In this document: in pieces, positions 850-64,000 of the stretch
Position numbering within the stretch: position 1 is the stretch's first letter
Layout of the letters: each line of letters starts with the position of its first letter
Source of the DNA: Anaerolineae bacterium
GTDB taxonomy: Bacteria; Chloroflexota; Anaerolineae; B4-G1; SLSP01
DNA length: 64,000 nt
Assembly: GCA_016931185.1 (NCBI GenBank)
Contig: JAFGFI010000018.1
Coordinates: 1,135-65,134, forward strand
Direction: 5' to 3'
Program-made: the position numbers and the translations under genes
The notes under the pieces: generated by a model
Databases searched by the model: none
The model's input: the letters and a program-made list of their open reading frames with translations, nothing else
What the model was told of the DNA's origin: nothing

Positions 850-868
850 TGATTCTCTCCCAATATAG

Positions 869-915
869 GGCAAGGTTCGGAAATCTTGCCTTTTACCCTT
901 ACACTTTATGCCCTC
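869..915. repeat. Copy 1 of an approx. 45-nt intergenic element (GGCAAGGTTCrGAAAyCTTGC hairpin plus TTTTACnnTTACACTTT tail)
   Basis: GGCAAGGTTCGGAAATCTTGCCTTTTACCCTTACACTTTATGC. Compare with 17512-17555. Confidence 0.6.
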
Positions 916-961
916 TCAAACGTAAAAGTGTAAAGGTAACTTGAACCATCCCCAATATAGA

Positions 962-3900: not shown

Positions 3901-3982
3901 TAATGGCTGTCAGGATAAGCGCGCTAACTTCTAGTAATAGGAAGTAAGTATAAAAAGTTTTTCGACGCCCGCGCTTTACCAA
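962..3982 (-). CDS. Hybrid sensor histidine kinase (two TM helices around an extracytoplasmic domain, PAS, DHp, HATPase_c with insertion, REC, C-terminal helical domain)
   Basis: 1006-aa ORF with TTG start. H-box MSHELRTPLN, N-box NLLGNAVKFT, G1 DTGVGI, G2 GTGLGV. Receiver ILIVEDD...FMDMRMPRMDG...FVRKPF. PAS-like ERYHSMFNNNYAVMLLIDPETGRIVDAN. Confidence 0.9.
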   Translation of the reverse strand: MVKRGRRKTFYTYFLLLEVSALILTAIILSAGIWITLEWVNRSYLELHLADADKVTFFLKSQLTEASRKLDLLATLPEAERLTIAQSMFTDYSDLYQLDTEFRVVQVYKAVPGSLVFPGFSFSGGKLGSYLNRGVGKDLFSDIMRGYEDDTPSIYYAYRHNETLYLGRMNLAYIQELIVQHSRFSGTPVMLISQDGLVIVSSDPELNLYSFDLKKWTGPVSMRRTLIVGGRHWIPLIAEERAVGANVLLLIPTDLPMTLQRLLVLFLSGLLGGLMLLAGIKNRQIARSVLLPISQLTHKLEALENGRLPDTDESIHYRFDELTSIHTRFQTMVRAIIAREQNFRASEERAYDMARRIEAINRVLRESEERYHSMFNNNYAVMLLIDPETGRIVDANLAASAYYGYTRAELTTRLITEINILSAAQVYEEMQQAKSEARRHFFFRHRLASGEVRDVEVYSGPIQMGEQQLLYSIVHDITERKRMEAELIQAKENAEAANRAKSVFLANMSHELRTPLNAVLGFSELISHAPNLTQEQRENLDIIERSGAHLLALINDVLDLSKIEAGRETLQPEVFDLHEMLLGLGEMFSLRAEQGGLTMVFDFASSVPRHIYADQGKLRQILINLLGNAVKFTRKGGITMKVENREWRTEERKSQTGNQEVSDENQGTDFHSSFSILDTPPPIQLHFEVKDTGVGIAPDEIDKVFEAFVQTESGQLSRQGTGLGVPISREYVRLMGGDLTVQSEVGVGSVFSFDIQAEVVDVAREVDARTARRVIGLEPGQPVYRILIVEDDEASRVLLVKLLTPLGFDVCEAVNGEEAVAISERWQPHLIFMDMRMPRMDGYEATRRIKSRINKSSHQYPIIVALTASAFEEEREGILAEGCDDFVRKPFRESAIFEVLTRHLGLRFIHASVEAETASLTTHAEKVWPGNDKLDSDIIEAQIKALNPAWIEEIHQAILEGDLEWMETLIVQIKSQMPQLAGQLTQWLYNFEYTKILELILPGNNL

Positions 3983-3987
3983 AGCTC

Positions 3988-17511: not shown

Positions 17512-17555
17512 GGCAAGGTTCAGAAACCTTGCTTTTTACTTTTACACTTTTACGC
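17512..17555. repeat. Copy 3 of the approx. 45-nt element, abutting the stop codon of the GAF/PAS kinase gene
   Basis: GGCAAGGTTCAGAAACCTTGCTTTTTACTTTTACACTTTTACGC. Confidence 0.6.
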
Positions 17556-20500: not shown

Positions 20501-20580
20501 ACCCTAACTCACACTATCATTTAGATAAGGCAAGTATACTACCTAGAAGTAATGAAGCAACCGTTGGTTTTAAACTGTTG

Positions 20581-20609
20581 TTGACACTGAAAAAAAACTA
20601 GCCTATACT
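20581..20609 (+). promoter_or_regulatory. Sigma70-like promoter TTGACA-17-TATACT upstream of the MBL hydrolase gene
   Basis: TTGACA at 20581-20586, 17-nt spacer, TATACT at 20604-20609. Confidence 0.5.
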
Positions 20610-20730
20610 GATGTATAAGGATTAGGAGTTTTGCTCTTTTCATCTGGAAGTGACTATCAAAAGTTTAGCTGAATGTTATCGTTGAGTTGCTTGCCGATGA
20701 TACAAGTTTTATTTAAAGGTAGCAAAAAAG

Positions 20731-21585
20731 ATGATCATTACTTTTCTCGGGACTGCCGCTGCCAATGCTTTTCCAGAAGCCTTTTGCAAGTGCAAGAATT
20801 GCGAACAGGCACGGCTACTTGGCGGTACAAGTTTGCGAAAACGGTCTGCTCTGTTAGTCAATGATGATTTGCTCATCGACCTCGGCCCTGATATTATGGC
20901 GGCCTCACAAATGCATGGGTGTTCTTTAACCAATGTGAGTTATTGTCTTCAGACGCATCCCCATGCAGACCATTTAGATCTATCTCACCTTCTCTCCCGT
21001 AGTCCGGGATTTGGTGTAATGGGCGCTCCTCTCTTGAATTTTTACGCATCTTCCGAGACATTAAAACGCGCCGCAGAAACTTTTGAAAGAGACCTTGCCG
21101 GTTACGACCTATTATCTTCTGATAGCGAGAGGACTCTCAATCTCAAAATTCACCCCATCGAGCCGCTACACCCTTTCACAGTAGGGCGTTATTCTGTAAT
21201 TGCCTTTCCTGCCAATCATGCTCCCACGATGGGCGCGATGTTGTATGCAGTTGAAGCCAACGGGCGTACCGTTTTTTATGGCACAGATACGGCCACTTTG
21301 CTTGAACAGACTTGGCAGGCGTTTCACCAACATCAATTGCAATTTGATGTTGTCATACTCGACCATACATACGGGCCAAATCAACCAGGGAATGATCATT
21401 TGAGTGCCCATCAGGTCATTGAGCATGTAAAACGTATGCGGGATGAAGGTTTATTACGTCCGAATGCCCGTGCCTTTGCGACGCATATTGCCCATGAAGG
21501 TAACCCTGCACATCCAGAACTGGCAAAATTCGCCGTGCAGAATGGTTACGAAGTTGCATACGATGGGCTTGTTCTTGAAATCTAA
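20731..21585 (+). CDS. MBL-fold metallo-hydrolase (PhnP-like)
   Basis: HPHADH (HxHxDH) motif. N-terminal CKCKNC Cys cluster as in PhnP-type proteins. Confidence 0.8.
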   Translation: MIITFLGTAAANAFPEAFCKCKNCEQARLLGGTSLRKRSALLVNDDLLIDLGPDIMAASQMHGCSLTNVSYCLQTHPHADHLDLSHLLSRSPGFGVMGAPLLNFYASSETLKRAAETFERDLAGYDLLSSDSERTLNLKIHPIEPLHPFTVGRYSVIAFPANHAPTMGAMLYAVEANGRTVFYGTDTATLLEQTWQAFHQHQLQFDVVILDHTYGPNQPGNDHLSAHQVIEHVKRMRDEGLLRPNARAFATHIAHEGNPAHPELAKFAVQNGYEVAYDGLVLEI

Positions 21586-49238: not shown

Positions 49239-49290
49239 ATTCCGTGGTATACTATGCCTATTGATAACATCTATGCAAGGAGCATATCCA

Positions 49291-50646
49291 ATGAATACTG
49301 CCCCAATGAACATTGGCCCAATGAATATTGGCATAGTCGGTGCAGGCGTGACCGGCTTAACCGCCGCTTATGATTTACTCAAAATGGGACACAGTGTAAC
49401 CGTCTACGAAGCCCGCCCCTACGTCGGCGGGTTGGCTGCCGGTTTCAAGGACCCGGCCTGGGAGTGGCCTTTGGAACGTTTCTACCATCACATCTTCGCC
49501 AGTGATAAGGATATTATCGGCTTACTCAACGAACTCGGTATCGGTGACCGGCTTTACTTTCCCAGTTCTATAACTTCCATCTACTACAAGGGTGAAATCT
49601 ACCCCATGACGCGGGAGCAGGGCGGGTTGATGGGGATTGTCCTGCAGGTGTTATCGTTTAAACCCCTATCCTTCTTCAACCGGCTGCGCTTTGGCGCAGT
49701 GAGCGCGTATATCCGCTATACCCCTTTCTGGAAGTCCCTGGAGCGCGTCACCGCGCACGAGTGGCTGCAAAAGATGGTGGGGAAACAAGCTTACGAAGTC
49801 TCCTGGCAACCGCTCTTAGAGGGTAAATTTGGCCCCTACTATAAGCAGGTGAATATGGCGTGGTTCTGGGCGCGCCTGGCTGCCCGCACTCCCCAATTAG
49901 GCTATTTTGAGGGGGGCTTCCAGGGTATCCTGGATTCGCTGGCGGATAAGGTGCGTATTATGGGCGGTGAGATTCGATTGGAAACTCATGTCCGGGGAAT
50001 TCACCCGGAGGGAGGGACAGCCGGAGACCGTGCCCAGACTGGCATCCGCCTCGAACTGGGGACGGGCAATGTAGTCCATGATCGCGTGCTGGCGACATGC
50101 TCCCCCGAAATGTTGAAAGAGCGCACGCCCGCGCTGCCTGCTTCCTACACGGCAGGATTGGATAAACTTAAGTCAATGGGCGCGGTAGTATTGGTACTCG
50201 CGGTCAAGCAATCGGTGACCGGCGGGCACTACTGGATTAATATTCCCAAGCGCGAGGGGTTCCCTTTCCTGGCCTTTGTGGAACATACCAACTATGTGGA
50301 TAAGCAACACTATGGAGGCGATACTATTATTTTCTGCGGTGATTATTTGCCCCAGGGACACGCTTACTTTGATATGTCGCCGGAGGAGATACTCGACGCC
50401 TTCCTCCCAGGTATCCAACGGCTGAATCCCGCCTTTGACCGTTCCTGGATTCGCAATTACTGGAAATTCAGCGAGATCTACGCCCAGCCTGTGCCCTTTG
50501 TCAATCATTCCACCAACATCCCGCCTTTACAAACCCCGATTCCCAATTTATACATGGCAAACATGAGCCAGGTCTACCCGTGGGATCGCGGCAGCAATTA
50601 CGCGGTCGAGATGGGACGGCGCGTGGCAAGATTGATGGGACGGTAG
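49291..50646 (+). CDS. FAD-dependent amine-oxidase/desaturase-fold oxidoreductase
   Basis: IGIVGAGVTGLTAAYDL dinucleotide-binding motif. AAGGAG lies 9 nt upstream of ATG 49291. The track ORF starts at 49114 inside the miaB tail. Confidence 0.75.
   Translation: MNTAPMNIGPMNIGIVGAGVTGLTAAYDLLKMGHSVTVYEARPYVGGLAAGFKDPAWEWPLERFYHHIFASDKDIIGLLNELGIGDRLYFPSSITSIYYKGEIYPMTREQGGLMGIVLQVLSFKPLSFFNRLRFGAVSAYIRYTPFWKSLERVTAHEWLQKMVGKQAYEVSWQPLLEGKFGPYYKQVNMAWFWARLAARTPQLGYFEGGFQGILDSLADKVRIMGGEIRLETHVRGIHPEGGTAGDRAQTGIRLELGTGNVVHDRVLATCSPEMLKERTPALPASYTAGLDKLKSMGAVVLVLAVKQSVTGGHYWINIPKREGFPFLAFVEHTNYVDKQHYGGDTIIFCGDYLPQGHAYFDMSPEEILDAFLPGIQRLNPAFDRSWIRNYWKFSEIYAQPVPFVNHSTNIPPLQTPIPNLYMANMSQVYPWDRGSNYAVEMGRRVARLMGR
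49302..49331 (+). repeat. Tandem 15-nt duplication at the 5' end of the oxidoreductase gene
   Basis: CCCAATGAACATTGG CCCAATGAATATTGG, encoding PMNIG-PMNIG. Confidence 0.7.
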
Positions 50647-51044
50647 GCAGATCTGTATCTATCATCAGAGTTCGCGGATCGAACTGTTACTCCCCAATAG
50701 CCGCCGCCGATGACTGAGACGGCCCCTTGCCATTGCGGCGGAGATTACGGACCACTAATGGTCCATTGTGGAACTACTCTGGTATCACGTCCCGCAGCCG
50801 CCATGCTTGCCTAGACGGCGGGGGCGCTCTTCCCAAGCTTTCTTGGCGCTCAAAAAGCAGTGGCTGAGTTAACCATGGTTCCTGTGATACTACCAGTGAA
50901 TGCAATTTGCATTTTATTTAAATACTATCTATAATAAAAAGTAAAGTGCCCCCACCATAACGGAAGCAGTTACCCGATCAGGTGGCATCAACACCGAATC
51001 GAACCCTTAGCTATTATGGCTAAAAAACATCTAATATAATCACA

Positions 51045-51081
51045 ACACGCCGCCTGGTCAATAACGAACTAGGCGGCGTGT
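51045..51081. other. 11-bp GC-rich hairpin in the island junction
   Basis: ACACGCCGCCT (15-nt loop) AGGCGGCGTGT. No adjacent U-tail on the plus strand. An A-run lies about 17 nt upstream, which is a T-run on the minus strand. Confidence 0.35.
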
Positions 51082-51385
51082 CACATTGATAGAAGATTGT
51101 TTAATTTGATATCGTCCCATATTGTGGTTTAGACTGATATTGCACCTGAGCAAGTAAGGTAGGAAAAGATTCTCCACACTATTAAAGATAACGAGAACTA
51201 TCGGCAGATACAAGGCAAATATCCATGGTTTAGATTTCACGCACTCAATAGTTTGGCGGGGCGAGTGGCAGTGACTTGGCAACGAAGGAACGTAGGTCAT
51301 TATGTAACTCAAGCTCAAAAACTTTACTCCCCTTCCCTTTCAATGATAGGGTGACAACTTGAATTATGTATCAACAAGGAGGGAT

Positions 51386-54300
51386 ATGATGGTCAACATT
51401 AATGCAGCGAGTAAAGAACAGTTAGTTAAGCTGGCGGGAATTGGTGAGGCAAAAGCTGAAAAGATCATAACTTTTAGAGAATCTGGTGGTATCATTAACA
51501 ATATCGAAGAACTAAGGAAAATCGCTGAAGTGCAACCGCATTACTTGGCGGCACTAGAGGCAGAAATTGATTTTCATTTAGATGAAAACTCTGATAGTTT
51601 GTCTTTTATAACTGCACGGCCTTCACTTGACCTAATATCCAAACCACAAATATCTTCCGTGTTCCCAACTGATCCCTACACACCCGTAAAACCTTTGCCA
51701 TTACCTCTCTTTGGTGCCTATCAATTCACAGTGAATTTTGAGAGAATGAATAATTGCCCATTGCCCGATCTTTCAGGATATCAGTTGCTGGTAGGATATC
51801 GCATTGGTAATGTCATCACGGAATCCAAAACCCATATTCGGGAACGGACAAAAACTTATAATCTTGGTAAAAAACCTGCAATTACTATCAGTATCCCTAA
51901 ACCATTCTTGCCGGCTGCTTTTTTGGAGAATGAATTTGAACTTATTTTGTTATCTCCCGAAGAGATTACGGTATACCGTTCGTCTTTTGAGATTGATGAG
52001 GGCGATCAAGTAACAATTGGTGTCCCGCTCTATGGACAACAAACATTGGAAATTACCTGGAATAAGAATGTCGATTACAGAGGTCTCTCTTTAGAGTTAG
52101 CGTATTCGATGAATAGAGGCGCTTCAGGGATAATCGAAAGCACAAAGTCTTTTGAGTTAGGAGGAGAAGAATCTCTACAAGTTGAGTTTGATACATTTGG
52201 GCAAGTGGAAAAGCTCAGTGTTGCAGTTTACTCTAATGAAGGAATTCTTGTTTATCACAGCAAATCTACTTGGGCGGAATTGGGGGGCACAGGAAATGCA
52301 AAAAGCATAAAATGTAAGCTACCAATGCCTGAGGAAATTATATTCAATGTATCGCTTGGGCAAGGTTTATACCAAGATCATCAATTGGTGGCTAACTTTT
52401 ATATACTCGATGAAAAGACACTTTCAACCATCTGTCAGATAGAAGAAAACTATTCGATTACCTCGGAGGGGAAGTCTAAAGTTAAACTGGCTCATTACGG
52501 GCTTGTCAAAGAAATTACACTGACAGTTTATGCTCCTGCGGGGGAAGTTATTGGTAAAAAGACAATAATAAATACAGATTGGAGCGATGGAGGCACAATT
52601 ACAATTGATGCGCCACCGCGTCAACGTGCTGGGGGCAGTGGGCTTGATGAAACGCTTCCTAACCGCCCGAAAAAGACTACAGGACGGGCTATTGACGTAA
52701 GAGGGAAGAAAAAGCTTGAGGGTATTCAGATCATAATCTATGCTTCAAAAGTTCCAAACCCGCAAGAGGCAGATTATGTGCCTCTGTTAGTGCTTCAAAC
52801 CGAGACGGACGGATATTTCTTGTTTGATACGCCAATAGGGTATTATGAGAAAGCGTATGCTATGGTAGGAACACCCAAAAAGGGCGAAGCTGAGAAAGGT
52901 GTATGTAAAGTTGATATCTGTCTTGAACCGGACTTTGTAGAAAAACTCCAACAAGGTGGCCCTCCTAAGAAAGTTGAAAAAAAATTCTTCCCGGGGCGCT
53001 TGCTTTTGGTTATTGATGCTGAATCTGAGTCGCATGGCAAGGATGGGGGCGATTGCGACGATTGCAAAGACTTGAATTTTCATCGTCACAAAGCAGTCGT
53101 AGATGAATTCTCATACTATACAGTGGTTCGAACCACTGAACCTGACATTCAAGGGTATACATTGGAAGAGGATGGGGATGTAACTCTCCAAAAAGTCTTG
53201 GAAGTTGCACCTATCGTTGGGGAAGATGCGAACAGCATACCTCTTGCTATGCGATTTCAGCCAGTGCGTCGCTCCATATTGAATAAATATGTGAATGACC
53301 GGCGAGGTTTGACACTAACAACATTGAAAAAAGCATTGGCAGAAAGTAATGCACGGAAATTGCGGGAACTTATTAAGCCAACGCGCCGCCATCAAACACC
53401 AGGAAGGCACACGTTAGATTTAGATCATGCTATTGATTGGGATAAAGACCCCACTATTTATCAAGCTACAACAATCGCTCATGGCCACTTACTGCACTAT
53501 AAGCAGGAGTGGAAGAACAACGGGTTCGGCATAGGAGATTTGCTCTACAGTTTACCGCTTGCTCCCGGGCAGCAAAAACAAATTGTAGTATTTGACTGGG
53601 AACGCCGTGATTCAGCAAGCCGCAGCGAATCTCTCGATTACCAAGAGAGTCTCTACAATTCCTTAACTCGTGATCGTGATGTAAACGAGATTGTTACGGG
53701 GGTCTTGCGTGAAAGTGTGCGCGGCGGGTCAACAGCTAAAACATCGTCTCGTTCCGGGGGATTGGGTATTGCCGCCATTTCTGGCTCAGTAGGGGGGCTG
53801 TTGGGGATTGCAGGCGGTTCAAGTAAGTCTAGTTCCACTGCTTGGCAAGACTCTTCTCGCAATACAGCATTGCAGGACATGCAACAAATTCGTGACCGGA
53901 CCGTTCAGTCGGCGAACTCGGTCCGTAGTCTGCGTAGCACTGTGGTGACCACGGCAACTCAAGGTGAACGCTTCTCGGTGGAAACAGAGGTTATTGCGAA
54001 TTATAATCACTGTCATTCACTCACAATGCAATACTTCGAAGTATTGCGGCATATGCAAGTTGAAGTACGACTTTCATCAGTGCAAGAGTGTCTATTCATT
54101 CCTTTGATAATGTCGTCTTTTGATCACCAAAAGATTTTACGTTGGCGCGAACCCCTTGCCGGATACATACTTGATGAACAGCTACGCTGTGGCTTTGATG
54201 CAATAGGGCGGATCGAAAACGATTATGAGGGAAGTGACTTGCCTGAAGGTATGTATGCAGAAGATGAAATTGAATACTGGTCTGGTGATTTATATATCAA

Positions 54301-56545
54301 ATTTGATATTCCCTGCCCGGCAGATCTGGAACTCTTTGAAAAAAAGGAGGAGTTGCGTGAGGCTTTATCGCCTTTTATATTCTGGGGATCTTCCATTGAT
54401 CGGTTAATTGACAAAGTTTATGAACAAGCGGCTAACAAGCGTAATGAAGCCTTCTACCGTTTCGTAGCCCCCGAAATTGCAGCGGCAATTGCAGATAAGC
54501 TGCGATTTACAGCAGTTATTCGGCAAGAAAGTAATGAATACTCCGTAGAACTAAATGTTGATACAACACTGGTTTCACGGTTCCAAAATGGACAAAACCA
54601 TTACATCAGCGTGCGAGAACTTACTAGGCAAACTCCCATCAAGCGCATAGATATTGAGGCTATTACAATCCATATTGATGCAAGCACACAATTGAAAAGC
54701 GGCGAGAGCATTGAAGAATTTTTACCCAGTAACACACGGATCATTGTAACCTCAGGCAGTATGAACTATCGCAGTAAGCACTATTCAGGGCTTTTATTCA
54801 AGTCTTCGCGCATCAACAACGACTTAGTTGGCTATGGGGGGGTTTCTTCTAATGATTACGTACGTATCCCAACCCCACTGAGTCACGAGGAAATGCGAAA
54901 CCCCCGGAACGAGGATCTCGAATCAGCCGATCATCTGCGACAGCATTTGAATGACAATCTGGAGTACTATCACAAAATCATCTGGATGAATATGAGCCCA
55001 GAACGTCGCTTTATGTTCCTGGATGGCATTCGGATAACCGATTATTCGGAAGGGGATCGGTATCCTTCTGGCGTGATCAGAAGTGTTGCTTCAGTTGTGG
55101 AAAACAGAGTGATTGGTATTGCCGGGAATAGCTTGGTGATGCCGGTGGCCCCGGGTTTTCGATTGGATCCCAATACACGCGGCCAATATGTAGACCTTCT
55201 TTCCCTTTATCAACCATTGACTCCAGTTGAACCCATTAATATCACGATACCAACGAAAGGCGTATTTGCCGAAGCAGTCATAGGAAAATGCAATAGTTGT
55301 GAGAAAATCCAAAATGATCGCTTCTGGAAATGGGAAGAACATCCAATACCTCACGCACCGACTGAAATTGCAGCAATCGGCACTGAAAGCCGTCGTAGCG
55401 CGCCGCTTGATACTACACCTTCAAGTCTTCCTAATCCTGTGGTTAATATTCAAAATGCCCCGGCGATTCCTGATCCTACAGGGTTATCAGCCGCCGCCAA
55501 CTTGTTAGAACAGGCACGTTTTGAGGATATCACCGGCTTAACTCAGAACCAACAAAATGCCCTGGAAGCATTAAAAGCGTCGCTTAGTGCAGCTCAGGCA
55601 TTTGGTTCGAAGGCTGGCGATATGGCAGCGTTGGGAGCGCAACTTGATAGTATCAGGATCGCTAAAGAAAACAACTTGATCGGTGAAGACAAAGCGCGAG
55701 AACTGAGCGAAAAAGCAATTGAGAATGCTGCCGCCGGTGGGGGAACACCGATTACTGAAGGCTTGTCTGAGTTGAAAAAAGTTCGGGAGATGGCAAAAAA
55801 TGGCACGATTACTGGGGATGTGGAACAAACCGTTACCGACGCTGTTGTCAGTAAAATTAAGCAGGACGCTCAAGGAAAGAAAGATAGTGATATTGGTCAA
55901 ATCATAGATAGAGGCGCATCATTGGTGGGAACAGGTATGGTTACAAATATGACTGCAAAGGCCACTGAGCCGGATGGTAAAACGTCCGAATTGACGTTAG
56001 CGAGTAGCGTAGTAGCTATGCCCCCCACGCCAAAACTGATACTAAGGAGAACAGGAGTTGAGTTTGAAGTTAGCTGCCCCACTGATTTTAGCCCGATTAC
56101 AATTGGTAATTTCAGAACTGTATGTGAGAACGGGAAGCTATATTATTGGGATACTACTGAGTCAGATAAGAATCATAAAAAATTGGTAAAAGGATATCGG
56201 AGCAAGTTAATTGTAGAAAATCCAGATGGCACATCTGAAGAATTTGATGCAATTGAACGGGCTAATGGTTTTACGCATCTTAAAGAAGGCACCTATCAAG
56301 CTACCTGTGAGCCAAGGGCCAGCCATCAAGATAAAGAGGAAATATTGGTGAAGGAGGCCATCTTCATCCATGTGGCAAACTACCCATATCAATTGCATGG
56401 GTGCATTGCACCTGGAGAAATTTGGCCGGAATTTGGTGTTTCCAATTCTACAGCCACATTAGCTAGAATCAATAGCCTCTTGGGATGGGAAAGCGGAAAG
56501 AAAATCGAGCTCGTAGTGAAAGGTTACAAGGAAAAGCCTGGATGA
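51386..56545 (+). CDS. Giant multidomain protein of unknown function (HhH, 3 beta-sandwich-like repeats, CarboxypepD_reg-like, conserved core with glycine-zipper, YkuD-like HGC C-terminal domain)
   Basis: Track ORF 51359..56545 has a TTG start. AAGGAGGG lies directly upstream of ATG 51386. ComEA-like HhH NAASKEQLVKLAGIGEAKAEKI. Glycine zipper GLGIAAISGSVGGLLGIAGG. C-terminal IHVANYPYQLHGCIAPG. Confidence 0.7.
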   Translation: MMVNINAASKEQLVKLAGIGEAKAEKIITFRESGGIINNIEELRKIAEVQPHYLAALEAEIDFHLDENSDSLSFITARPSLDLISKPQISSVFPTDPYTPVKPLPLPLFGAYQFTVNFERMNNCPLPDLSGYQLLVGYRIGNVITESKTHIRERTKTYNLGKKPAITISIPKPFLPAAFLENEFELILLSPEEITVYRSSFEIDEGDQVTIGVPLYGQQTLEITWNKNVDYRGLSLELAYSMNRGASGIIESTKSFELGGEESLQVEFDTFGQVEKLSVAVYSNEGILVYHSKSTWAELGGTGNAKSIKCKLPMPEEIIFNVSLGQGLYQDHQLVANFYILDEKTLSTICQIEENYSITSEGKSKVKLAHYGLVKEITLTVYAPAGEVIGKKTIINTDWSDGGTITIDAPPRQRAGGSGLDETLPNRPKKTTGRAIDVRGKKKLEGIQIIIYASKVPNPQEADYVPLLVLQTETDGYFLFDTPIGYYEKAYAMVGTPKKGEAEKGVCKVDICLEPDFVEKLQQGGPPKKVEKKFFPGRLLLVIDAESESHGKDGGDCDDCKDLNFHRHKAVVDEFSYYTVVRTTEPDIQGYTLEEDGDVTLQKVLEVAPIVGEDANSIPLAMRFQPVRRSILNKYVNDRRGLTLTTLKKALAESNARKLRELIKPTRRHQTPGRHTLDLDHAIDWDKDPTIYQATTIAHGHLLHYKQEWKNNGFGIGDLLYSLPLAPGQQKQIVVFDWERRDSASRSESLDYQESLYNSLTRDRDVNEIVTGVLRESVRGGSTAKTSSRSGGLGIAAISGSVGGLLGIAGGSSKSSSTAWQDSSRNTALQDMQQIRDRTVQSANSVRSLRSTVVTTATQGERFSVETEVIANYNHCHSLTMQYFEVLRHMQVEVRLSSVQECLFIPLIMSSFDHQKILRWREPLAGYILDEQLRCGFDAIGRIENDYEGSDLPEGMYAEDEIEYWSGDLYIKFDIPCPADLELFEKKEELREALSPFIFWGSSIDRLIDKVYEQAANKRNEAFYRFVAPEIAAAIADKLRFTAVIRQESNEYSVELNVDTTLVSRFQNGQNHYISVRELTRQTPIKRIDIEAITIHIDASTQLKSGESIEEFLPSNTRIIVTSGSMNYRSKHYSGLLFKSSRINNDLVGYGGVSSNDYVRIPTPLSHEEMRNPRNEDLESADHLRQHLNDNLEYYHKIIWMNMSPERRFMFLDGIRITDYSEGDRYPSGVIRSVASVVENRVIGIAGNSLVMPVAPGFRLDPNTRGQYVDLLSLYQPLTPVEPINITIPTKGVFAEAVIGKCNSCEKIQNDRFWKWEEHPIPHAPTEIAAIGTESRRSAPLDTTPSSLPNPVVNIQNAPAIPDPTGLSAAANLLEQARFEDITGLTQNQQNALEALKASLSAAQAFGSKAGDMAALGAQLDSIRIAKENNLIGEDKARELSEKAIENAAAGGGTPITEGLSELKKVREMAKNGTITGDVEQTVTDAVVSKIKQDAQGKKDSDIGQIIDRGASLVGTGMVTNMTAKATEPDGKTSELTLASSVVAMPPTPKLILRRTGVEFEVSCPTDFSPITIGNFRTVCENGKLYYWDTTESDKNHKKLVKGYRSKLIVENPDGTSEEFDAIERANGFTHLKEGTYQATCEPRASHQDKEEILVKEAIFIHVANYPYQLHGCIAPGEIWPEFGVSNSTATLARINSLLGWESGKKIELVVKGYKEKPG

Positions 56546-56576
56546 GAGAACACTTAAACATTGACGGAGGTCTAAA

Positions 56577-57128
56577 ATGAATCGCATATTTAGCATCGCT
56601 CAAGGGATATCCGTTCCCGACGGAACAACCGTATATCCTTTCCTGAATTCCAAGGACGAGACTAGCGGCTTACCCTGGAGTCTCTTGGATGGTTTTAGTC
56701 TCTCGGCTGGGGTGGTTGCGCCTAAGAGTTCATCCAAGATACACATTATGCCCTTGGTGACTCAGGTGACCTTTGTCCTTGAGGGTACTATCGAAATATG
56801 GATGAAAGGCTCAGAAAATCCAGAGCCATACAAGCAGGTTTTGACCTCACGACAAGCGATTCTAACCAATCCCGGTGCTTTTTTCCAACTCGTCAATAGC
56901 TCTATGGCGGTTTGCTGGTTGCTCTACATCGTTAGCCCTGCCTATGTATTTGAACTTAGTGATGAGAACGAAGTGATATACGATGACTCAATCATTCTCA
57001 ATGAAAATTGGAAAGAATTAGAAGCAAAAAACTGGCTTTCAGCAAACCCTTGTGATGTTGAAAAGATGCGAGAAGATAGGGCAGTTGCATCTGCACGATT
57101 GGCGGCACAGTCGCGAGCGAGATCATAA
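56577..57128 (+). CDS. Cupin-like beta-barrel protein (no clear metal-binding His cluster)
   Basis: 183-aa ORF with GGAGG upstream. SKIHIMPLVTQVTFVLEGTIEIWMKG and PGAFFQLVN resemble the two cupin motifs. Confidence 0.45.
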   Translation: MNRIFSIAQGISVPDGTTVYPFLNSKDETSGLPWSLLDGFSLSAGVVAPKSSSKIHIMPLVTQVTFVLEGTIEIWMKGSENPEPYKQVLTSRQAILTNPGAFFQLVNSSMAVCWLLYIVSPAYVFELSDENEVIYDDSIILNENWKELEAKNWLSANPCDVEKMREDRAVASARLAAQSRARS

Positions 57129-57204
57129 TAATGCCAATCATTTATCTGAGTCATACTATACCTGAACGGTTGTAGTTTACTATATTTACGACGGAGATAC
57201 TATT

Positions 57205-58617
57205 ATGCCCACTCAAGCGGATTACGAAACAGATGGTATCTTACCTATCATCTATCAACAACTACGTTCTACATTGATAGACTGCGGCCCCTTCTCCAGT
57301 CACGACGAACTCAAAGCCGTTTTCGTCGACAACCGCATCCACCCTTGGCGCAAGTGGATACCTGAAGCCAAAAGCGCCAGCAGCCGCGTCGAAGCCGTTA
57401 TTGACTTTCTCTACAACCAATATACCAGTACGCAGGACAATGCTTTGGTACTGCTGTTGCATGTGTTGAGCGAACGCAAAGAAACTGGTGATGCTTGTCA
57501 TCAAAAGTTGTTCAAATTAGCTGATGATCTCAGCAAAGGATTAGAATCCCATCTTTCTCCTGATGGAACACCACTAACACCACCACCCGATATGTTGCCC
57601 CGGAAATCCTACGATCACTTCACAGGCCGTGCGAAAGAACTACAACAGTTATTGGATGCGCTCCGCAACCCAGATCAGTACCAGTTGATTGCTATATACG
57701 GGTTGGGCGGTATTGGCAAAACTGCATTGGCCCGCGAAGCGTTGGAAGATTGCCGCGATGAGAAATTATTCCAGCACATCGTTTGGATGAGTGCCAAGAC
57801 AGAGCGTTTTGAAGGGGAGGGGACCCATAGACTACCGGTTTCTTCTTTTTCTCTTGACGACATTCTGAATGAAATTGCGCGCCAGTGTCACTTGCCTCAT
57901 CTAGCAAAACTCCCGTCTACAGAAAAGGTTGCGAATATCCAACACATTCTGGCTAACCGCCCTGTGCTCATCGTATTGGACAATATGGAAACGGTCAAAG
58001 ATTGTAAGGAAGTTGTAGGACAATTGGTCGAACTTTTAACAGGGCAAACCAAGTTTTTATTGACCAGCAAACTCCATATTACAAACATCAGCGCTTTTGA
58101 AATGCGCTTGCTAGGGCTTTCACCAGAGAATGGCGAGCTTTTTATGCGTCGCGAAGGCCGCAGTCAAGGTGCATCGGAAGTTGCGGATGCACCTTCAGAC
58201 ATACTTCAGAATATCGTGGGGGTATGCGGCGGTGCTCCGTTAGCGATGAAATTGATCGTCAGCCAATTAAAGCGCCGCGCTTTACAAGATGTGCTGGATA
58301 ATCTTAAAGTGGTTACGTCTGATGGCCCCGACTACGACTTCTACCGCTTTATTTACAAAGGCTCTTGGGATTTATTGAGCTTGGATGCCAAAAAAGTGTT
58401 GGTTTCGATGTCAGTCTTTGATTTGGAGAGCGGTGGGCGCGCTGATATGATGCGCGAGGTCAGCGATGTGGCCCCAGATGCCTTTGAAGACGCGGTGGTT
58501 GAACTGGTGATGATGTCATTAACGAACCTGGTAGGGCAGTTAGGCCAACGGCGCTACACACTGCATCAATTGACCTACTATTTCATTTTATCAGACATTG
58601 TAAAGAAATGGGGGTAA
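57205..58617 (+). CDS. NB-ARC (AP-ATPase) STAND NTPase with N-terminal helical adaptor-like domain
   Basis: Walker A IYGLGGIGKTALA, Walker B VLIVLDNME, GxP motif CGGAPLAMKLI. About 140 aa of helical N-terminal extension. Confidence 0.8.
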   Translation: MPTQADYETDGILPIIYQQLRSTLIDCGPFSSHDELKAVFVDNRIHPWRKWIPEAKSASSRVEAVIDFLYNQYTSTQDNALVLLLHVLSERKETGDACHQKLFKLADDLSKGLESHLSPDGTPLTPPPDMLPRKSYDHFTGRAKELQQLLDALRNPDQYQLIAIYGLGGIGKTALAREALEDCRDEKLFQHIVWMSAKTERFEGEGTHRLPVSSFSLDDILNEIARQCHLPHLAKLPSTEKVANIQHILANRPVLIVLDNMETVKDCKEVVGQLVELLTGQTKFLLTSKLHITNISAFEMRLLGLSPENGELFMRREGRSQGASEVADAPSDILQNIVGVCGGAPLAMKLIVSQLKRRALQDVLDNLKVVTSDGPDYDFYRFIYKGSWDLLSLDAKKVLVSMSVFDLESGGRADMMREVSDVAPDAFEDAVVELVMMSLTNLVGQLGQRRYTLHQLTYYFILSDIVKKWG

Positions 58618-58620
58618 AGA

Positions 58621-59829
58621 GTGATGAGTGAAGAACCTGAATGGCTGTCATTTTATCAAGATCGGGGACGCCGGCACGCAACCCTGGCATTAGCGTTTGC
58701 AGTACAGCACGGGCAAAATACACCGGAGGCACATCAGCAGTTGGCACAGGAACTCCCCAACATGGTCAGGGCGCTAGAGTGGATGCAAACGCACACTCAC
58801 TGGCACAATATCGCACATTTGTTCTCGGCTTTGTGGGAAGAAAGCCGATTTCTACAGGATCGTGGCCCGGCTCCTGCGTACCTCATTGAGGGAAAAGGGC
58901 ATTTGCTGCCTGCTGCCGATTTGCTCCCCCTGCTGGAAATGGGTGTGCTGGCGGCACGCGAACTAAAGGATAACCATAAACTATGCATGTGTTTAAACGC
59001 ACTGGGAAGCACGTTGCGAGCAATGGGCAAGGTTGATGAGGCGCTTGCGCTACATAATGAAGCCTTGACCATAGCACAGCAATTCGAGGATGCATCTCCT
59101 GCGCGCCAGACGCTTTCTCTTTTGGGCATGGTGTGGATTGATAAAGATGTAAACCAGGCGTTACCTCACTTGCAAAAGGCACTTAACACACCAGTATCCC
59201 ACACCAATGTGGAACTGGATATTGATCTCTTTGGCGCACTTGCAACCGCTCACGCGCAACTGGGGCAAATGGCATTGTTGAACCAGCTAAGCGAGCCGGG
59301 AAAGGCGGCTTTCGAGAAGGCCGCTACCTATCTGGAAAAGGCATTAGGCTTAGCAACAAAATCCCAGGATAAGCGACGCCAGGCAGAACTATATCACCAA
59401 CGTGGGTATTTGCGCAGCGTTACAAATGACTTGGAGAATGCGCGTGCCGATTTTCAGCAGGCTGCCGACCTTAGTAAAGAAGTAGGCCATCAATGGGGAT
59501 ATGGACGAGCTTTACAGGCTTTAGGAGTTCTGCGTATACAAATCGGGCAGGTAGCGCAGAACACCAATAAAGTCGCGCTAGGTATCACCGATTTAGAAAA
59601 GGCTCTGACGTTGCTAGAACAAACCGGGGATGGAGAAATCATAGCTTCCACATTGGCAGCCTTAGGCCAGGGATATGCGCTTTTGGGGCAGTTAGATATG
59701 GCAAAAGCACATTTGGAACATGCATTGGAAGTTATCAAGGCTTTTAGTGATTTACCCAAGATCGCAGCCTTGGAACAGGCGATTTTGCCGTTATTAGCTT
59801 ATGTAAAGCAAGCGAAAGGAGAAAAGTGA
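58621..59829 (+). CDS. TPR-repeat protein (expected sensor arm of the preceding NB-ARC module)
   Basis: 402-aa ORF, same reading frame as 57205..58617, separated by TAA plus one codon. Repeated A..Y...G / L..A..I helical pairs (ALALHNEALTIAQQFED, AELYHQRGYLRSVTNDLENARADF). Confidence 0.75.
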   Translation: MMSEEPEWLSFYQDRGRRHATLALAFAVQHGQNTPEAHQQLAQELPNMVRALEWMQTHTHWHNIAHLFSALWEESRFLQDRGPAPAYLIEGKGHLLPAADLLPLLEMGVLAARELKDNHKLCMCLNALGSTLRAMGKVDEALALHNEALTIAQQFEDASPARQTLSLLGMVWIDKDVNQALPHLQKALNTPVSHTNVELDIDLFGALATAHAQLGQMALLNQLSEPGKAAFEKAATYLEKALGLATKSQDKRRQAELYHQRGYLRSVTNDLENARADFQQAADLSKEVGHQWGYGRALQALGVLRIQIGQVAQNTNKVALGITDLEKALTLLEQTGDGEIIASTLAALGQGYALLGQLDMAKAHLEHALEVIKAFSDLPKIAALEQAILPLLAYVKQAKGEK

Positions 59830-59830
59830 G

Positions 59831-60892
59831 ATGGTTATACCAGCTTTGATGATCGGATTGTTAATTGCTAAAGGACTGACGGTGGTCGGACCAAAGCACG
59901 AATACCTGGAAAAACATGATCCAAATCTCCCCTTCTACGAAGAAGACACTTTTCCTACCTTGTTGGAGAAAATAGCGCCTTACACACATTCGAGGTTTCA
60001 GCTACACATAAATCGTTCGGCCGATCTTTTTGCTCAATTACACACAATGTTGATGCTTTTGCAAGGGGCAACTATGGATTTCGCAAAGGGTAGGATTGAT
60101 CATTCCAACATGCAGCCAGGGTATCAGTATGATAATTACGAAACTATTCTTGTGAATGCTTATAGTAATGAGGAGGACAAAAAGATAATTGACGGCAAAC
60201 TAAACGCAATTTCCAAAGTATCTGATGAGAGCTTTGGTGAGTATATTATTGATCATTACCAAGATATGGCGAAGTGTTTGGTGGGATATTTGGATATAGC
60301 ATCGAAATTAACAAACGGTTTTGACATTTCGGGCTGCTTAAATGAATGTCAAAATACCATAGGGAAGTTACCACCCGGTGACTCTATTAAAAAGACATGC
60401 ATGACTGAGTTCCTGGCATTAACGCGCCTTCTGTTTTCTGGGGTAGATTTAAAGAAGGTGCTGGACTTAGCTACTAACTTAAATCTAAATGTTCCTCCTC
60501 ACGAATGGCTTGATCAACAATTATCAGCGGGTACCCTATGGCAGGACGTGGTAAATTATTATGCTTCTCCTGCCGCTACATCTAAGGCAAAACTTACCCT
60601 GAGTCATATCTATGTGATGTTGGAAGAAAGTTATTGGTTTTACAATAGAATTCGCTATAAAGACCCTCATAATCCGGAGATGAGCAACAATCGATTAGGC
60701 ATAGATTTTAAATGCGCGATCGGATTTGATGATGAAGGAAAGTGTGACAATCTAAATACAGGCCAACTTCCTGCTGGATACCAAGCCACATGGGAGAAGT
60801 TGCGTCTGGCGTTACATGGCGCAGTCGCGTGGTATATGTATTGCCTCTGCGCTTATGCAGTAAATGAGATTAAAGCTGCGTTAACCCCGTGA
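59831..60892 (+). CDS. Orphan protein with N-terminal hydrophobic helix
   Basis: 353-aa ORF. Its ATG lies 1 nt after the TPR stop, which suggests translational coupling. N-terminal MVIPALMIGLLIAKGLTVVG. No recognised domain. Confidence 0.5.
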   Translation: MVIPALMIGLLIAKGLTVVGPKHEYLEKHDPNLPFYEEDTFPTLLEKIAPYTHSRFQLHINRSADLFAQLHTMLMLLQGATMDFAKGRIDHSNMQPGYQYDNYETILVNAYSNEEDKKIIDGKLNAISKVSDESFGEYIIDHYQDMAKCLVGYLDIASKLTNGFDISGCLNECQNTIGKLPPGDSIKKTCMTEFLALTRLLFSGVDLKKVLDLATNLNLNVPPHEWLDQQLSAGTLWQDVVNYYASPAATSKAKLTLSHIYVMLEESYWFYNRIRYKDPHNPEMSNNRLGIDFKCAIGFDDEGKCDNLNTGQLPAGYQATWEKLRLALHGAVAWYMYCLCAYAVNEIKAALTP

Positions 60893-60983
60893 TCTCTACT
60901 CGCGGGCGGTTGCGTGAGTGTGGGCAGAACCGTGTAAATGTCGGTTCTACTCTACATATCACTTGTTATAAGGAGAGTGAGCA

Positions 60984-63900
60984 ATGACTGAGCAATCCAC
61001 GTATCAGGATTTTGATGTATTCCTAGACTGTAAATTGGATGCGAACAATAATTTCCAAAACATCACACTTAAAGATGCTGAGGGTAACAAATGTACAGTT
61101 CATTACAACTTTTCAAAACCTGTTGGGAGGATTAAAAAAGCGATGGCAATGGCCAAGCACACTACAGAATCTTCTCAATGGCTAGACGAATTAGGCGCGG
61201 AACTTCAAGGGCTTTTCTTTCCCAATACCGGTGAAGGCCGCAACTTAACTGATAAATTCTGCGGGTTTCTAAAAAAGTTGGGAAACTCAGGCAAGGCGCG
61301 GCTCCGGTTATTTTATCCCAACGATGTGAATAAAATTATTGCGTTGCTGGGTGTTCCCTGGGAGTATCTCTATCTAGACTCGCAGTGTACTGGATTAGAA
61401 AAGAGTTACTTGTGCCTCAACAAACGTTTTTCGCTGGTGCATTGTTTGATCAATAAACCAGAAGAACTTGGCAAATGCGAACACTTACCTCTTAAAGCAT
61501 CTTTCTATATGCATTTAGAGAATGTGCAATCGGTAATTAAGGAGCTTGATATAATTCAATATTTAGCTCTTGGAGAAAAAGAAAAGCTTGCATTCGCAGG
61601 GAATGACCCTCAGAGGAAAGGCGAAATAGATTTGCTTGTTCAGCGCGCTAACGATTTGGTTATTATGTACAAGGAGATAGCCTATGATCTGAAGCAGTCT
61701 GGGCGCCCTCATATTATCCAACTATCAGGATATCATGAGATGCTAGAAAAAGAACATATACAGTGGGCAACTGAGACCTTTGACATAATCCAATATTTGG
61801 CTCATGGAGATATTGACGGACTGGCGTTAGCAAACGGTGACACCTACAAGAAAGCAGAAATAATAAACGATATTCAGAAACCTAAGACTAAAGTTGTTAT
61901 TCTAGGTGTGTGTAGTAGCGCGAGTAGTTACTCAGGAGCAGCCGTGGCTTTCCATGAAGCCGGTGTCCCCATTGTCGTTGGAATGACCCAGATAACCGCT
62001 ACATCCGTAGCCAGTAGTTTCTTAGAAGCCTTGTACACGCAGTTAGCAGAACGTCTGTGTAGTGTGGAAGAAGCGGTGGCAGTCGCTCGGAGTCAGTTAT
62101 ACGAAGAGAAGGGTTGCGATCAATTTTCTTTGCATTGGGGAATACCGCGCCTCTTTATGCGCAGTACTCATAGCGACCTCATTGACCGACAATCCTTGTA
62201 TGAACGTGTCTATAACATATCCACTTGCAAAGAAATCAGAGAAAAAATCCTGCCACCGGAACAATCGATAGATATTCAATCTTTTGTTCGTTGGTCAAAA
62301 ACTTTGAGAGAATGGATTGATAGCGAGAAAGTAGGCATGCTTTATCTTTATGGCCGGGATGGGAGTGCCAAAAGTACCGAGGTGGCGCGCTTGTTACACG
62401 AGTACGATGGACAGAACAATAAACCTAAGCTGTTAGGCCACTTTTGCCGTAATGATGATCATCAAACTTCTAATCCTCTCATATTCGTTCGCGACTCGCT
62501 GTACCCCCAGCTTGAAGATTACTATGGGGCTGACTTTTATCGAGGATACTTGAGAGGGGTGTTTCCTAGGGCTGCTTATGACGCTAGATTTGCATTTTAC
62601 AATCTATTTCTCCTTCCCCTTAGCCGAATTCGCGAGAAAAACCCAGAGGCCCGTTTGCCTACAATTATTATCGACGCAATTGATGATGCTGTAGCGCGCT
62701 ATCCAAGCGAGTCTATTCTTGATCTGTTAATTGACCACCAACATGCGATCACCCAAGTTGCTCGCGTGATCATTACCGGTAACTACTCAGAAGAACCTGA
62801 TTCTCCTCATCAACGCATTCGCGTGGAACTGGAACCGGAGATTATTAGCATATCAGAAGATATTATATCTTGTGGACAACTACCAACCATCAAAGAGACT
62901 GATATTGAAGAAAAGATACCAGATGCATCGCTGCGAGCGCTCACTTTTAAGCACATAAACGAAATTTGTGAACCGGAGCAAAAAATGCAATTGTGGCGCT
63001 TCTTGTCGGATTGTGGTGCTGATCTGCGCAAAGTCTTATGTGGGATAAGCAAGTCGGACAAAAAACCGCTTCCATTGGAAAACTACTATCAAGCGTATTT
63101 GGATATTGTGAAGAGTAAGAATGAATATGCTGAAGACTTGCTACGCGTGTTGCTTGTTGCATATAGACCGCTCTCGGCAAAGTTTTTGAAACAACTTTTT
63201 CAAGAAGTAGAAATCTTGAATGTTTCAAAGGTTATGGACGAGATGCCGGCATTTATTCATAGTACGGATAGTGTTTACACATGTCACAGCAGTATCAGAC
63301 GCTTTCTAAATGAAAAACTTTTCTTTTGCCCCGATCCTAACAAAATCATAAAACCCCCGCGTGATGAAAGTCTTAAGCCGAATTATAGCGCCAGGTCAGA
63401 TGCTCATGGTTTTTTTATGAATTTATATGCCGGGGAGGAGATGGTCAAATTGCAAAATTGGTATGAATTGAATGAAAAATGGGGGAACTATGTTCAAAAT
63501 TACCTACCTTTGCATGCCTACAAGTGTTATCAGTATGCCTGTTATGGTTATATGGAAATATCAAATGAAATTGATGATCCTGCGGAACTTTGGGATCACT
63601 TTTCCCAAGAGTATGACCAAGGAATCAGAGATGGTGAATATTATACGCGGTCTAGTCTGGGAAATTTAAATTATGTAGACGGGCAGTCTTGGAATAGGCG
63701 TTCTCTTAGTGCAATGGCATTTCTACACCTTATCAGCCAACCTTCTTTTCGCGAATTCCGTATGTACACAGAAGGCACAGAGGCAGTTGTTGACGATATG
63801 CTTTTTGGTTTAAGAGTTACTTTGTTTGAACACATGTTGAACCTTTCAATTATGCTTGCTCCCAATTATGGATCAAAAGAATACAGTAAACATAGACAAG

Positions 63901-64000
63901 GTTTTGCTCGCTTGATAACAGCTTACGAGCATATTCTGGACATTTTAACGGAGGATAAAGAGAAGGAGTTGATCGGCCTCGAACGAAAAGTACGAGGGGT
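60984..64000 (+). CDS. CHAT (caspase-fold) protease fused to a P-loop STAND-like NTPase; 3' partial
   Basis: Not in the ORF track because no stop occurs before the window end. My hand translation from ATG 60984 (AGGAGAG upstream) stays open to 64000. LRLFYPNDV...LGVPWEYLYLD. His in QYLAHGD (codon about 61803-61805). Cys in VVILGVCSSASS (codon about 61911-61913). P-loop-like LYLYGRDGSAKST and Walker-B-like PTIIIDAIDDA. Confidence 0.75.
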   Translation, partial: MTEQSTYQDFDVFLDCKLDANNNFQNITLKDAEGNKCTVHYNFSKPVGRIKKAMAMAKHTTESSQWLDELGAELQGLFFPNTGEGRNLTDKFCGFLKKLGNSGKARLRLFYPNDVNKIIALLGVPWEYLYLDSQCTGLEKSYLCLNKRFSLVHCLINKPEELGKCEHLPLKASFYMHLENVQSVIKELDIIQYLALGEKEKLAFAGNDPQRKGEIDLLVQRANDLVIMYKEIAYDLKQSGRPHIIQLSGYHEMLEKEHIQWATETFDIIQYLAHGDIDGLALANGDTYKKAEIINDIQKPKTKVVILGVCSSASSYSGAAVAFHEAGVPIVVGMTQITATSVASSFLEALYTQLAERLCSVEEAVAVARSQLYEEKGCDQFSLHWGIPRLFMRSTHSDLIDRQSLYERVYNISTCKEIREKILPPEQSIDIQSFVRWSKTLREWIDSEKVGMLYLYGRDGSAKSTEVARLLHEYDGQNNKPKLLGHFCRNDDHQTSNPLIFVRDSLYPQLEDYYGADFYRGYLRGVFPRAAYDARFAFYNLFLLPLSRIREKNPEARLPTIIIDAIDDAVARYPSESILDLLIDHQHAITQVARVIITGNYSEEPDSPHQRIRVELEPEIISISEDIISCGQLPTIKETDIEEKIPDASLRALTFKHINEICEPEQKMQLWRFLSDCGADLRKVLCGISKSDKKPLPLENYYQAYLDIVKSKNEYAEDLLRVLLVAYRPLSAKFLKQLFQEVEILNVSKVMDEMPAFIHSTDSVYTCHSSIRRFLNEKLFFCPDPNKIIKPPRDESLKPNYSARSDAHGFFMNLYAGEEMVKLQNWYELNEKWGNYVQNYLPLHAYKCYQYACYGYMEISNEIDDPAELWDHFSQEYDQGIRDGEYYTRSSLGNLNYVDGQSWNRRSLSAMAFLHLISQPSFREFRMYTEGTEAVVDDMLFGLRVTLFEHMLNLSIMLAPNYGSKEYSKHRQGFARLITAYEHILDILTEDKEKELIGLERKVRG

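Follow-up and report, generated by a model that had tools for sequence, protein, structure and literature searches.

The stretch of DNA analyzed here (the window, 64,000 nt) covers positions 1,135 to 65,134 of the forward strand of contig JAFGFI010000018.1 (65,659 nt), part of a metagenome-assembled Anaerolineae genome (GCA_016931185.1). Toward its 3′ end lies a block of six + strand open reading frames (ORFs), 51386–64115, which encode the proteins MBN1872820–MBN1872825 and are called g1 to g6 here (Table 1). The extent of the block comes from the ORF calls and from L004, a contig of the Logan assembly of run SRR13394437 that matches the window identically from position 52525 onward. L004 supplies the end of g6, which lies 115 nt 3′ of the window edge and gives the protein a full size of 1043 aa. 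It also places the following gene on the opposite strand, and because of this the block closes at g6 and holds exactly six genes. The reading that we favor, and consider reasonably probable, is that the block is a horizontally acquired accessory island of low guanine-cytosine (GC) content in which two functionally independent conflict modules lie side by side, one built around g1 and the other (module B) consisting of g3–g6.

An earlier note, made from the sequence alone, had described the genes as co-directional and tightly spaced, which the ORF calls confirm: the intergenic gaps from g1 to g6 are 31, 76, 3, 1, and 91 nt, and no terminator-like hairpins are predicted on the + strand between the six genes. 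The shift in composition that the note had described is borne out by each of the measures computed. The GC content is 0.443 in the block versus 0.504 in the remaining 51 kb of the window, and the flanks are richer, at 0.539 over the 4.6 kb preceding the 50647–51385 region and 0.61 over the 410 nt that follow g6. GC at third codon positions (GC3) is 0.44 in the block versus 0.53 (Mann-Whitney p = 0.002), and the tetranucleotide L1 distance between the block and the rest is 0.253, with same-size chunks of the rest at 0.085–0.164 (n = 20). A GC content of 0.45–0.47 is also seen in genes for large hybrid histidine kinases of PAS/GAF type and for a response regulator (193–6591 and 17555–21585), so low GC by itself is not specific to the island; the island is lower still, and its tetranucleotides differ. 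The AT-rich island is genuine. Searches of the window detected no tRNA, integrase, or CRISPR array, and no att-like direct repeats of ≥10 nt occur at the island edges. The view that this compositionally foreign island carries genes of a conflict type, encoding a signal transduction ATPase with numerous domains (STAND) and a CHAT protease, also stands. As to the individual domains, the NB-ARC, tetratricopeptide repeat (TPR), and CHAT-NTPase assignments hold up, the cupin assignment is weak (E 0.006), and a death-like domain in g3 had been missed.

Table 1. Features of the six-gene block and of its upstream edge, in window coordinates.
Feature	Position	Strand	Details
AT-rich intergenic region	50647-51385	+	Island upstream edge, candidate g1 promoter region; GC 0.458
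g1	51386-56545	+	NCBI start, 1719 aa; longest ORF from TTG 51359
g1 HHH_3 (ComEA-type helix-hairpin-helix), N-terminal	51392-51562	+	Pfam E 1.4e-13; PDB ComEA E 9e-6
g1 conserved family core	52646-55768	+	Motifs LPLAPGQ, NYNHCH, CNSCE invariant; no Pfam model
g1 glycine-zipper-like hydrophobic segment GGLGIAAISGSVGGLLGIAGG	53756-53818	+	Ser/Thr-rich stretches either side
g1 variable C-terminal tail	55769-56542	+	DUF5675 at 56261-56479, HGCIAPG motif
g2	56577-57128	+	183 aa, weakly cupin-like
g3	57205-58617	+	470 aa; bDLD1 57238-57516, NB-ARC/AP-ATPase 57634-58284
In-frame TAA, g3/g4 divider	58615-58617	+	Read from sequence
g4	58621/58624-59829	+	401-402 aa, TPR protein
g5	59831-60892	+	353 aa, near-orphan; N-terminal transmembrane (TM) helix 59831-59893
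g6	60984 to past 64000	+	CHAT 61749-62138, NPHP3_N NTPase 62298-62777, helical C-terminal region

The separation of g1 from the rest of the block is carried by the behavior of its relatives. A word-indexed search returned four proteins and suggested that g1 is an orphan, a status overturned by the thousands of homologs that exhaustive HMMER/phmmer searches recover with core residues 640–1470. Counted as representative clusters at 50% identity, the core is present in 3,411 clusters, 1,682 of them with E<1e-30, in proteins of 1,100–2,600 aa in which the core is central. A scan of one genome per GTDB species for the motifs LPLAPGQKK and VANYNHCH confirmed the family in 275 species. The phyla include Bacteroidota, Actinomycetota, Pseudomonadota, Myxococcota, and Chloroflexota, and among the hosts are Flavobacteriaceae, Saprospiraceae, Streptomyces, Mycobacterium, Legionella, Myxococcus, and Bdellovibrio, as well as Nitrospira, Verrucomicrobia, Acidobacteria, and Chloroflexi. 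One relative was found among 2.9 million viral contigs, and the family is cellular, not phage-borne. The record MT835996, labeled as a phage and containing a g1 relative, was considered as a pointer to a phage origin; it is an unverified, unannotated high-GC scaffold and was not counted as evidence. Members of the family are labeled in databases as hypothetical, HHH-domain, or OmpA-family proteins, and a literature search found no name for the family. The nearest relatives of the g1 core are from Flavobacteriaceae and Desulfobacterota (61–67% identity), and the copies in Anaerolineales are at 46–48%. Since the best relatives thus lie outside its own lineage, g1 appears to have been acquired horizontally as a separate event, which fits its low GC.

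We examined 80 g1-family loci (L007–L086) from many phyla, with up to 10 kb on each side (blastp 1e-5, phmmer 1e-2). Relatives of g2, g3, g5, and g6 are absent from all of these loci, and for g4 a single marginal TPR match is seen. No position-conserved neighbor family is found in the set once ORFs that overlap the giant gene are dropped. The locus of the closest homolog, P0002 (58% identity), continues downstream with HAD, CAT, and unrelated genes, and relatives of g2–g6 are missing there as well. The g1 family is therefore independent of g2–g6. The giant protein had been put forward as a possible effector of a single system spanning the block; with more than 3,400 independent relatives, and 80 loci that lack the g2–g6 partners, this role is not sustained. 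Tight spacing and a common composition are insufficient to establish one system.

Within the g1 family, a conserved body is joined to tails that differ from protein to protein. Among 82 members, HHH_3 is present at the N-terminus in 28, and nothing else there is recognizable. P0002 stops exactly where the g1 tail starts, so that the tail is absent from the closest homolog. The 82 tails match 21 Pfam families, and their alignment has a mean column identity of 9%. Peptidase_C70 is the most frequent (17 tails), followed by M23, Amidase_2, and PETase-like domains (4 each); C39-like, M15_4, muramidase, Amidase_6, DUF2272, OmpA, tyrosinase, and reprolysin domains occur as well. The window protein is alone among the 82 in having a DUF5675 tail, which scores 25 bits in full-length g1 and 28.9 bits with the tail alone (cut-off 26.7). 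The motif HGCIAPG occupies residues 1680–1686; the Pfam match is to DUF5675, and the YkuD model is unmatched. DUF5675 has been grouped structurally with the C82 (L,D-transpeptidase/YkuD) peptidases and is a candidate lysin domain (bioRxiv 10.64898/2026.04.11.717860). Both this link and the motif support the earlier description of g1 as YkuD-like, and judged by its sequence, the tail is probably a YkuD/C82-like peptidase that acts on peptidoglycan.

A constant body with hypervariable C-terminal enzymes is also the hallmark of the polymorphic toxin systems (Rhs, CdiA, LXG, TANFOR), and the likeness extends to tandem paralogs and to a small downstream ORF at about half of the loci. The family differs from these systems in two features of its core: none of the known trafficking or repeat domains is matched by it, and no secretion system is conserved next to it. 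Its tails are mostly cell-wall hydrolases and proteases, unlike the nucleases and deaminases of polymorphic toxins, and no cognate immunity family emerged. On the basis of this domain pattern we read g1 as an autonomous polymorphic toxin. The family is huge and phylogenetically broad, its core is without a Pfam model, and it is the most broadly relevant by-product of this work. With no secretion system linked to it, its delivery route could prove new for antibacterial enzymes.

Head-to-tail pairs of g1-family paralogs are seen at 11 of the 80 loci (L046, L054, L061, L065, L068, L071, L072, L080, L081, L082, and L085). In these tandem pairs the longer member, with a tail of ∼600 aa, typically comes first and the shorter, with a tail of ∼200 aa, second.

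An AlphaFold model of the g1 core, built from 70 sequences, has a mean predicted local distance difference test score (pLDDT) of 75 and contains several β-hairpins with 20–30 residues per strand. The segment GGLGIAAISGSVGGLLGIAGG, which is the sole hydrophobic window of g1, is placed at the tip of a long hairpin with low confidence. Foldseek searches with the core against the PDB and BFVD returned weak, non-global matches only (E ∼3e-4, TM-score ∼0.06). The majority of these, including all top scorers, are pore states of β-pore-forming toxins (lysenin, aerolysin, anthrax PA, epsilon toxin, and CDTb), which we take as a lead only. In the mechanism that we propose, the core would insert into or cross the envelope and bring the C-terminal enzyme to the cell wall, and g1 would act as an antibacterial toxin with g2 as its candidate immunity protein.

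The small g2 protein starts 31 nt past g1. It matches Cupin_2 below the cut-off (E 0.006) and a PDB cupin with E 0.12, and no informative homolog was found. Relatives of g2 are absent from the 80 g1-family loci, as noted above, and from plasmids. A co-directional raw ORF lies within 200 nt downstream of the giant gene in 34 of 61 g1-family loci, with no conserved family among these ORFs. It is possible that g2 is the immunity partner of the g1 tail. The fact that g2 is missing beside the tail-less P0002 fits this idea.

Module B begins with g3, which contains a bDLD1 death-like domain (PF20689) at residues 12–104, whose score goes from 36.9 bits in full-length g3 to 40.9 bits when the N-terminus is searched alone (cut-off 25). 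The NB-ARC domain that follows scores 61.6 bits, above the Pfam cut-off, and its motifs are intact: Walker A GLGGIGKT (166–173), Walker B LIVLDNME (255–262), and GxP GGAPLA (342–347). The next gene, g4, is a TPR protein (TPR_12, E 1.7e-18). The two genes are in the same frame and are parted by one TAA, after which come a purine-rich stretch with a good ribosome-binding site (RBS) and an ATG. In relatives, NB-ARC and TPR regions form one chain; g3, for example, aligns to residues 122–454 of a 773-aa Anabaena "tetratricopeptide repeat protein". The TAA may mark a genuine division into two translationally coupled genes, or it may be a recent nonsense mutation or an error of the assembly. We presume that g4 is the other half of the g3 NTPase and serves as its sensor or scaffold. 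In NCBIfam, g3/g4 are weakly similar to TPR-ATPases of AfsR type and to those associated with ribosomally synthesized and post-translationally modified peptides (RiPPs). A second bDLD1 was sought in several ways: Pfam at E≤10 returns none in g2, g5, the termini of g6, or the g1 tail, hhalign of bDLD1 with the g5 and g6 profiles gives probabilities of <1%, and phmmer across the ORFs of the window finds g3 alone.

The ATG of g5 lies 1 nt past the g4 stop. No Pfam model matches g5 even at E≤10, and among 5.8 billion proteins a single homolog was found (P0006, 46% identity). Its N-terminal hydrophobic TM helix, M.IP.LMIGLLIAKG.T, is strongly conserved and has Gly/Ala positions. The protein is predicted to be all-α; the AlphaFold model, based on a two-sequence alignment, has a pLDDT of 37 and was unusable. 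The contig that encodes P0006 (L006) opens within the final codons of a gene resembling g4, and the DNA at the junction, GAAAGGAGAAAAGT[G/A]AGATG, is near-identical to that of the window. The coupling between g4 and g5 has therefore been kept at 46% protein identity. The earlier suggestion of g5 as a partner or effector remains plausible, given that this junction is conserved in a diverged relative.

The last gene, g6, combines a CHAT domain (34 bits) with an NPHP3_N STAND P-loop domain (32 bits). Its Walker A (GRDGSAKST) and Walker B (IIIDAIDD) motifs are intact, and the CHAT dyad His274/Cys310 aligns with the His and Cys of 9 distant CHAT proteins. The C-terminal ∼440 aa are conserved and helical, with no recognized repeat. 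At the extreme C-terminus (residues ∼975–1005; L004 11200–11591), the motif ARLxTAYExxLDILTEDKxKxLIxLxRKVRG is near-invariant in g6 and its two homologs, and it might serve in interaction or autoinhibition. In CARD-NLR systems (NLR, protein with a nucleotide-binding domain as well as leucine-rich repeats), a cryptic C-terminal CARD was found by structure prediction alone. The two g6 homologs, P0008 and P0009, are each at 49% identity. P0008 is on a 3.2-kb contig of the same run as P0006. Upstream of P0009, at a distance of 35 nt, is the end of a gene of at least 320 aa on the same strand. Scanning metagenomes with the g6 alignment gave distant proteins of 23–29% identity that match in the CHAT domain alone, and no g5 relatives lie near these CHAT-only matches. 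Neither g5 nor g6 was found in viral contigs, and g6 was not found in plasmids.

Run SRR13394437 therefore holds, next to the window sequence, a diverged sibling of g4–g5 (L006) and of g6 (L005) at 46–49% identity, on separate short contigs, and no overlap joins L006 (g5′) to L005 (g6′). The end of L006, CTGGCACA, and the start of L005, TGTGCCA..., are mutually reverse complements, and the assembly may have broken there at an inverted repeat. The g3–g6 module is real and very rare. The co-occurrence of homologs in other genomes, on which the earlier note had let its single-system idea depend, fails for g1 and survives for g4–g5 and probably for g5–g6.

With respect to described systems, no PADLOC-DB v2.0.0 system matches the block, in line with the earlier note, which did not recognize the combination as a named system. 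In that database, g4 matches a generic TPR model (1.8e-11), g3 matches PDC-S27 and Avs4 through the P-loop only (E 8e-4 to 6e-3), and g1, g2, g5, and g6 have no match. The locus had been put forward as a candidate undescribed one, but its general class is not undescribed: Kaur et al. (2020/2021) cataloged both death-like-domain STAND proteins that have caspases adjacent to them and TM proteins paired with caspase-X proteins. These authors describe fusions of bDLD1 with STAND NTPases, the "EAD principle" by which a second copy of the adaptor is carried by an effector, death-like-domain caspases in operons with AP-ATPases, and a two-gene system with a 5′ conserved-TM EACC1 protein and a 3′ caspase-X protein that can have a STAND NTPase as its variable part (PMC7159879, PMC8195603). 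In common with the death-like-domain/EAD STAND-caspase systems of multicellular bacteria (PMC7159879, PMC8195603), the block has a bDLD1-STAND/AP-ATPase with TPRs in g3–g4 and a caspase-superfamily protease nearby, a filamentous Chloroflexota host, and a predicted NTP-dependent oligomerization that leads to protease activation. It differs from them in lacking a second adaptor copy as well as MoxR-vWA, iSTAND, and trypsin components, and in a protease that carries its own STAND. The membrane-associated EACC1-caspase "System 4" (Kaur 2020) shares a 5′ gene with a small-residue-rich, conserved single TM helix and a 3′ gene with an N-terminal caspase fold followed by variable domains. The latter corresponds to g6, in which the CHAT dyad is followed by the STAND NTPase. 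As for the 5′ gene, g5 has the conserved TM helix and has no Pfam match at E≤10 in a library in which the presence of the EACC1 model is unconfirmed. However, g5 is far longer than EACC1 proteins and continues past its TM helix with ∼330 aa of helical domain, and the EACC1 system is mainly actinobacterial.

The CARD-NLR/type II gasdermin systems (Wein et al. 2023, PMC10312443) and LypABC (Banks et al. 2026, PMC13236601) likewise unite in one operon an adaptor of the death fold, a repeat-containing NLR-like ATPase, and one or more proteases. In that class the lethal effector is encoded in the same operon, and an anti-phage or lysis function has been demonstrated experimentally (PMC10312443, PMC13236601). 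There, the CARD is on a trypsin-like protease, of which there are two, whereas here the death-fold is on the ATPase and CHAT is fused to a second STAND. The six proteins contain no trypsin or subtilase domain, and no gasdermin, nuclease, or phospholipase gene is present among them. A gasdermin next to the protease is not found either, as g5 has no gasdermin match and is predicted, in a low-confidence model, to be all-α and not β-rich. Avs and bNACHT proteins have the tripartite layout of g6, with an N-terminal effector, a STAND NTPase, and a C-terminal helical region, but g6 matches no PADLOC Avs1–4 or bNACHT model. Type III-E Craspase (TPR-CHAT) can be set aside, as the window has no repeat array and the scanned block and flank proteins have no Cas domain. 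By the tests run, module B is a member of none of these systems; by analogy, we infer that it works like those of Kaur et al., the CARD-NLR systems, and LypABC.

Module B would accordingly be an apoptosis-like module of NLR type. Together, g3 and g4 would make up an NB-ARC ATPase resembling Apaf-1, with a death-like adaptor at the N-terminus and a TPR sensor. The g5 protein would be helical, anchored in the membrane, and coupled to g4 in translation, and g6 would unite a caspase-like CHAT protease, a STAND NTPase of its own, and a helical sensor region at the C-terminus. A ligand derived from an invader would bind the repeat or sensor regions, and NTP-dependent oligomerization would then gather the CHAT domains and activate them. 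Proteolysis of a target, for which g5 is the nearest candidate, would lead to growth arrest or cell death. All of these activities, the trigger, and the targets, like the role of g2, are what we infer from the domains and their arrangement. If active, module B extends the known bacterial relatives of the apoptosome and inflammasome by a rare architecture, and it could show the cooperation of two NLR-like switches.

How the six genes divide can be drawn differently, and the spacing of the block invites the idea of one integrated system, in which the STAND proteins would sense, CHAT would transduce, and g1 and/or g5 would execute, for example with CHAT freeing the g1 peptidase for altruistic lysis. 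The gaps of 1–91 nt, the common strand, the low GC, and the lack of predicted internal terminators are in its favor, LypABC provides a precedent for NLR-like and protease control of lysis (PMC13236601), and the g1 tail is likely a lytic enzyme. However, STAND, CHAT, and g5 neighbors are absent from the 80 g1-family loci, unrelated genes follow the closest g1 homolog, the family behaves as a stand-alone gene that is sometimes duplicated in tandem, and g1 and g2 were not seen on the contigs of the g5 and g6 relatives, which are short. We therefore hold an integrated system to be highly improbable. An elaboration of it, in which an Apaf-like sensor and a CHAT-STAND protein captured a g1-family cell-wall toxin as executioner, so that the sensing of an invader would bring about proteolytic licensing of a self-inserting lytic protein and hence altruistic lysis, by an apoptosome wired to an endogenous "holin-endolysin-in-one", is a shade less probable again. 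The opposite course is to divide the block further, into at least three independent units: g1 with or without g2, a g3–g4–g5 sensor with a membrane effector, and g6 as a self-contained system of Avs/bNACHT type. Indeed, the effector-NTPase-sensor layout is complete in g6 alone, g4 and g5 are coupled with a conserved junction versus a gap of 91 nt between g5 and g6, and the siblings g5′ and g6′ are on separate, non-overlapping contigs, with a hairpin-containing spacer after g5′. We nevertheless consider this division unlikely, since the other g6 relative with upstream sequence has its same-strand gene of at least 320 aa just 35 nt away, g5 and g6, like the relatives of each, are rare and diverged (46–49%) to about the same degree and occur in the same samples, and described pairs of a TM protein with caspase-X have exactly the g5–g6 order.

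Apart from how the genes are grouped, module B might not be directed at invaders at all, and could instead be an AfsR/SARP-like NB-ARC-TPR regulator, a housekeeping CHAT protease, or a decaying remnant with a nonsense codon between g3 and g4. The NCBIfam similarities mentioned above, the one in-frame TAA, and the singleton nature of genes with almost no relatives all point this way. Against it, no BTAD or HTH DNA-binding domain is present, and the N-terminus of g3 is a death-like adaptor instead. The catalytic and NTP-binding motifs are all intact, as are the ORFs downstream of the TAA, which is itself followed by a good RBS and an ATG, and a foreign-composition island beside a toxin gene is the typical setting of a conflict locus. 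On balance, a role outside conflict seems rather improbable. Our preferred reading, with two independent conflict modules side by side, has points against it as well. The co-directional, tightly packed arrangement of all six genes, their common low-GC signature, and the lack of a predicted terminator between g2 and g3 mean that they may all be co-transcribed and functionally coupled in this one genome. There are two or three relatives of g5 and g6, all on short contigs, so that conservation of the four-gene module rests on few observations; the gene upstream of P0009 was not returned by the g5 search and is no more than a candidate g5 homolog. As no second bDLD1 exists in the locus or window, the homotypic partner expected for g3 is missing there, and the in-frame stop may mean that g3/g4 is decaying. 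For the g1 module, the immunity role of g2 is conjectural, with a downstream co-directional raw ORF at little more than half of the loci surveyed, and the pore or translocation idea comes from a moderate-confidence model and weak structural matches.

Upstream of the block, ordinary chromosomal genes are found, namely those for a MiaB-like radical-SAM enzyme, an amine oxidase, and methyltransferases, and histidine kinases, glycoside hydrolases, and ribF lie farther away. Rfam gives no match over the window, and the RNA fold of the 50647–51385 region is unremarkable (z = 0.14). Several sigma-70-like sites occur within this region, for example at 50906–50935; these are matches to the consensus alone. 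Finally, three copies of a 15-nt unit, CCAATGAATATTGGC, lie at 49288–49332, within the amine-oxidase gene upstream of the island.

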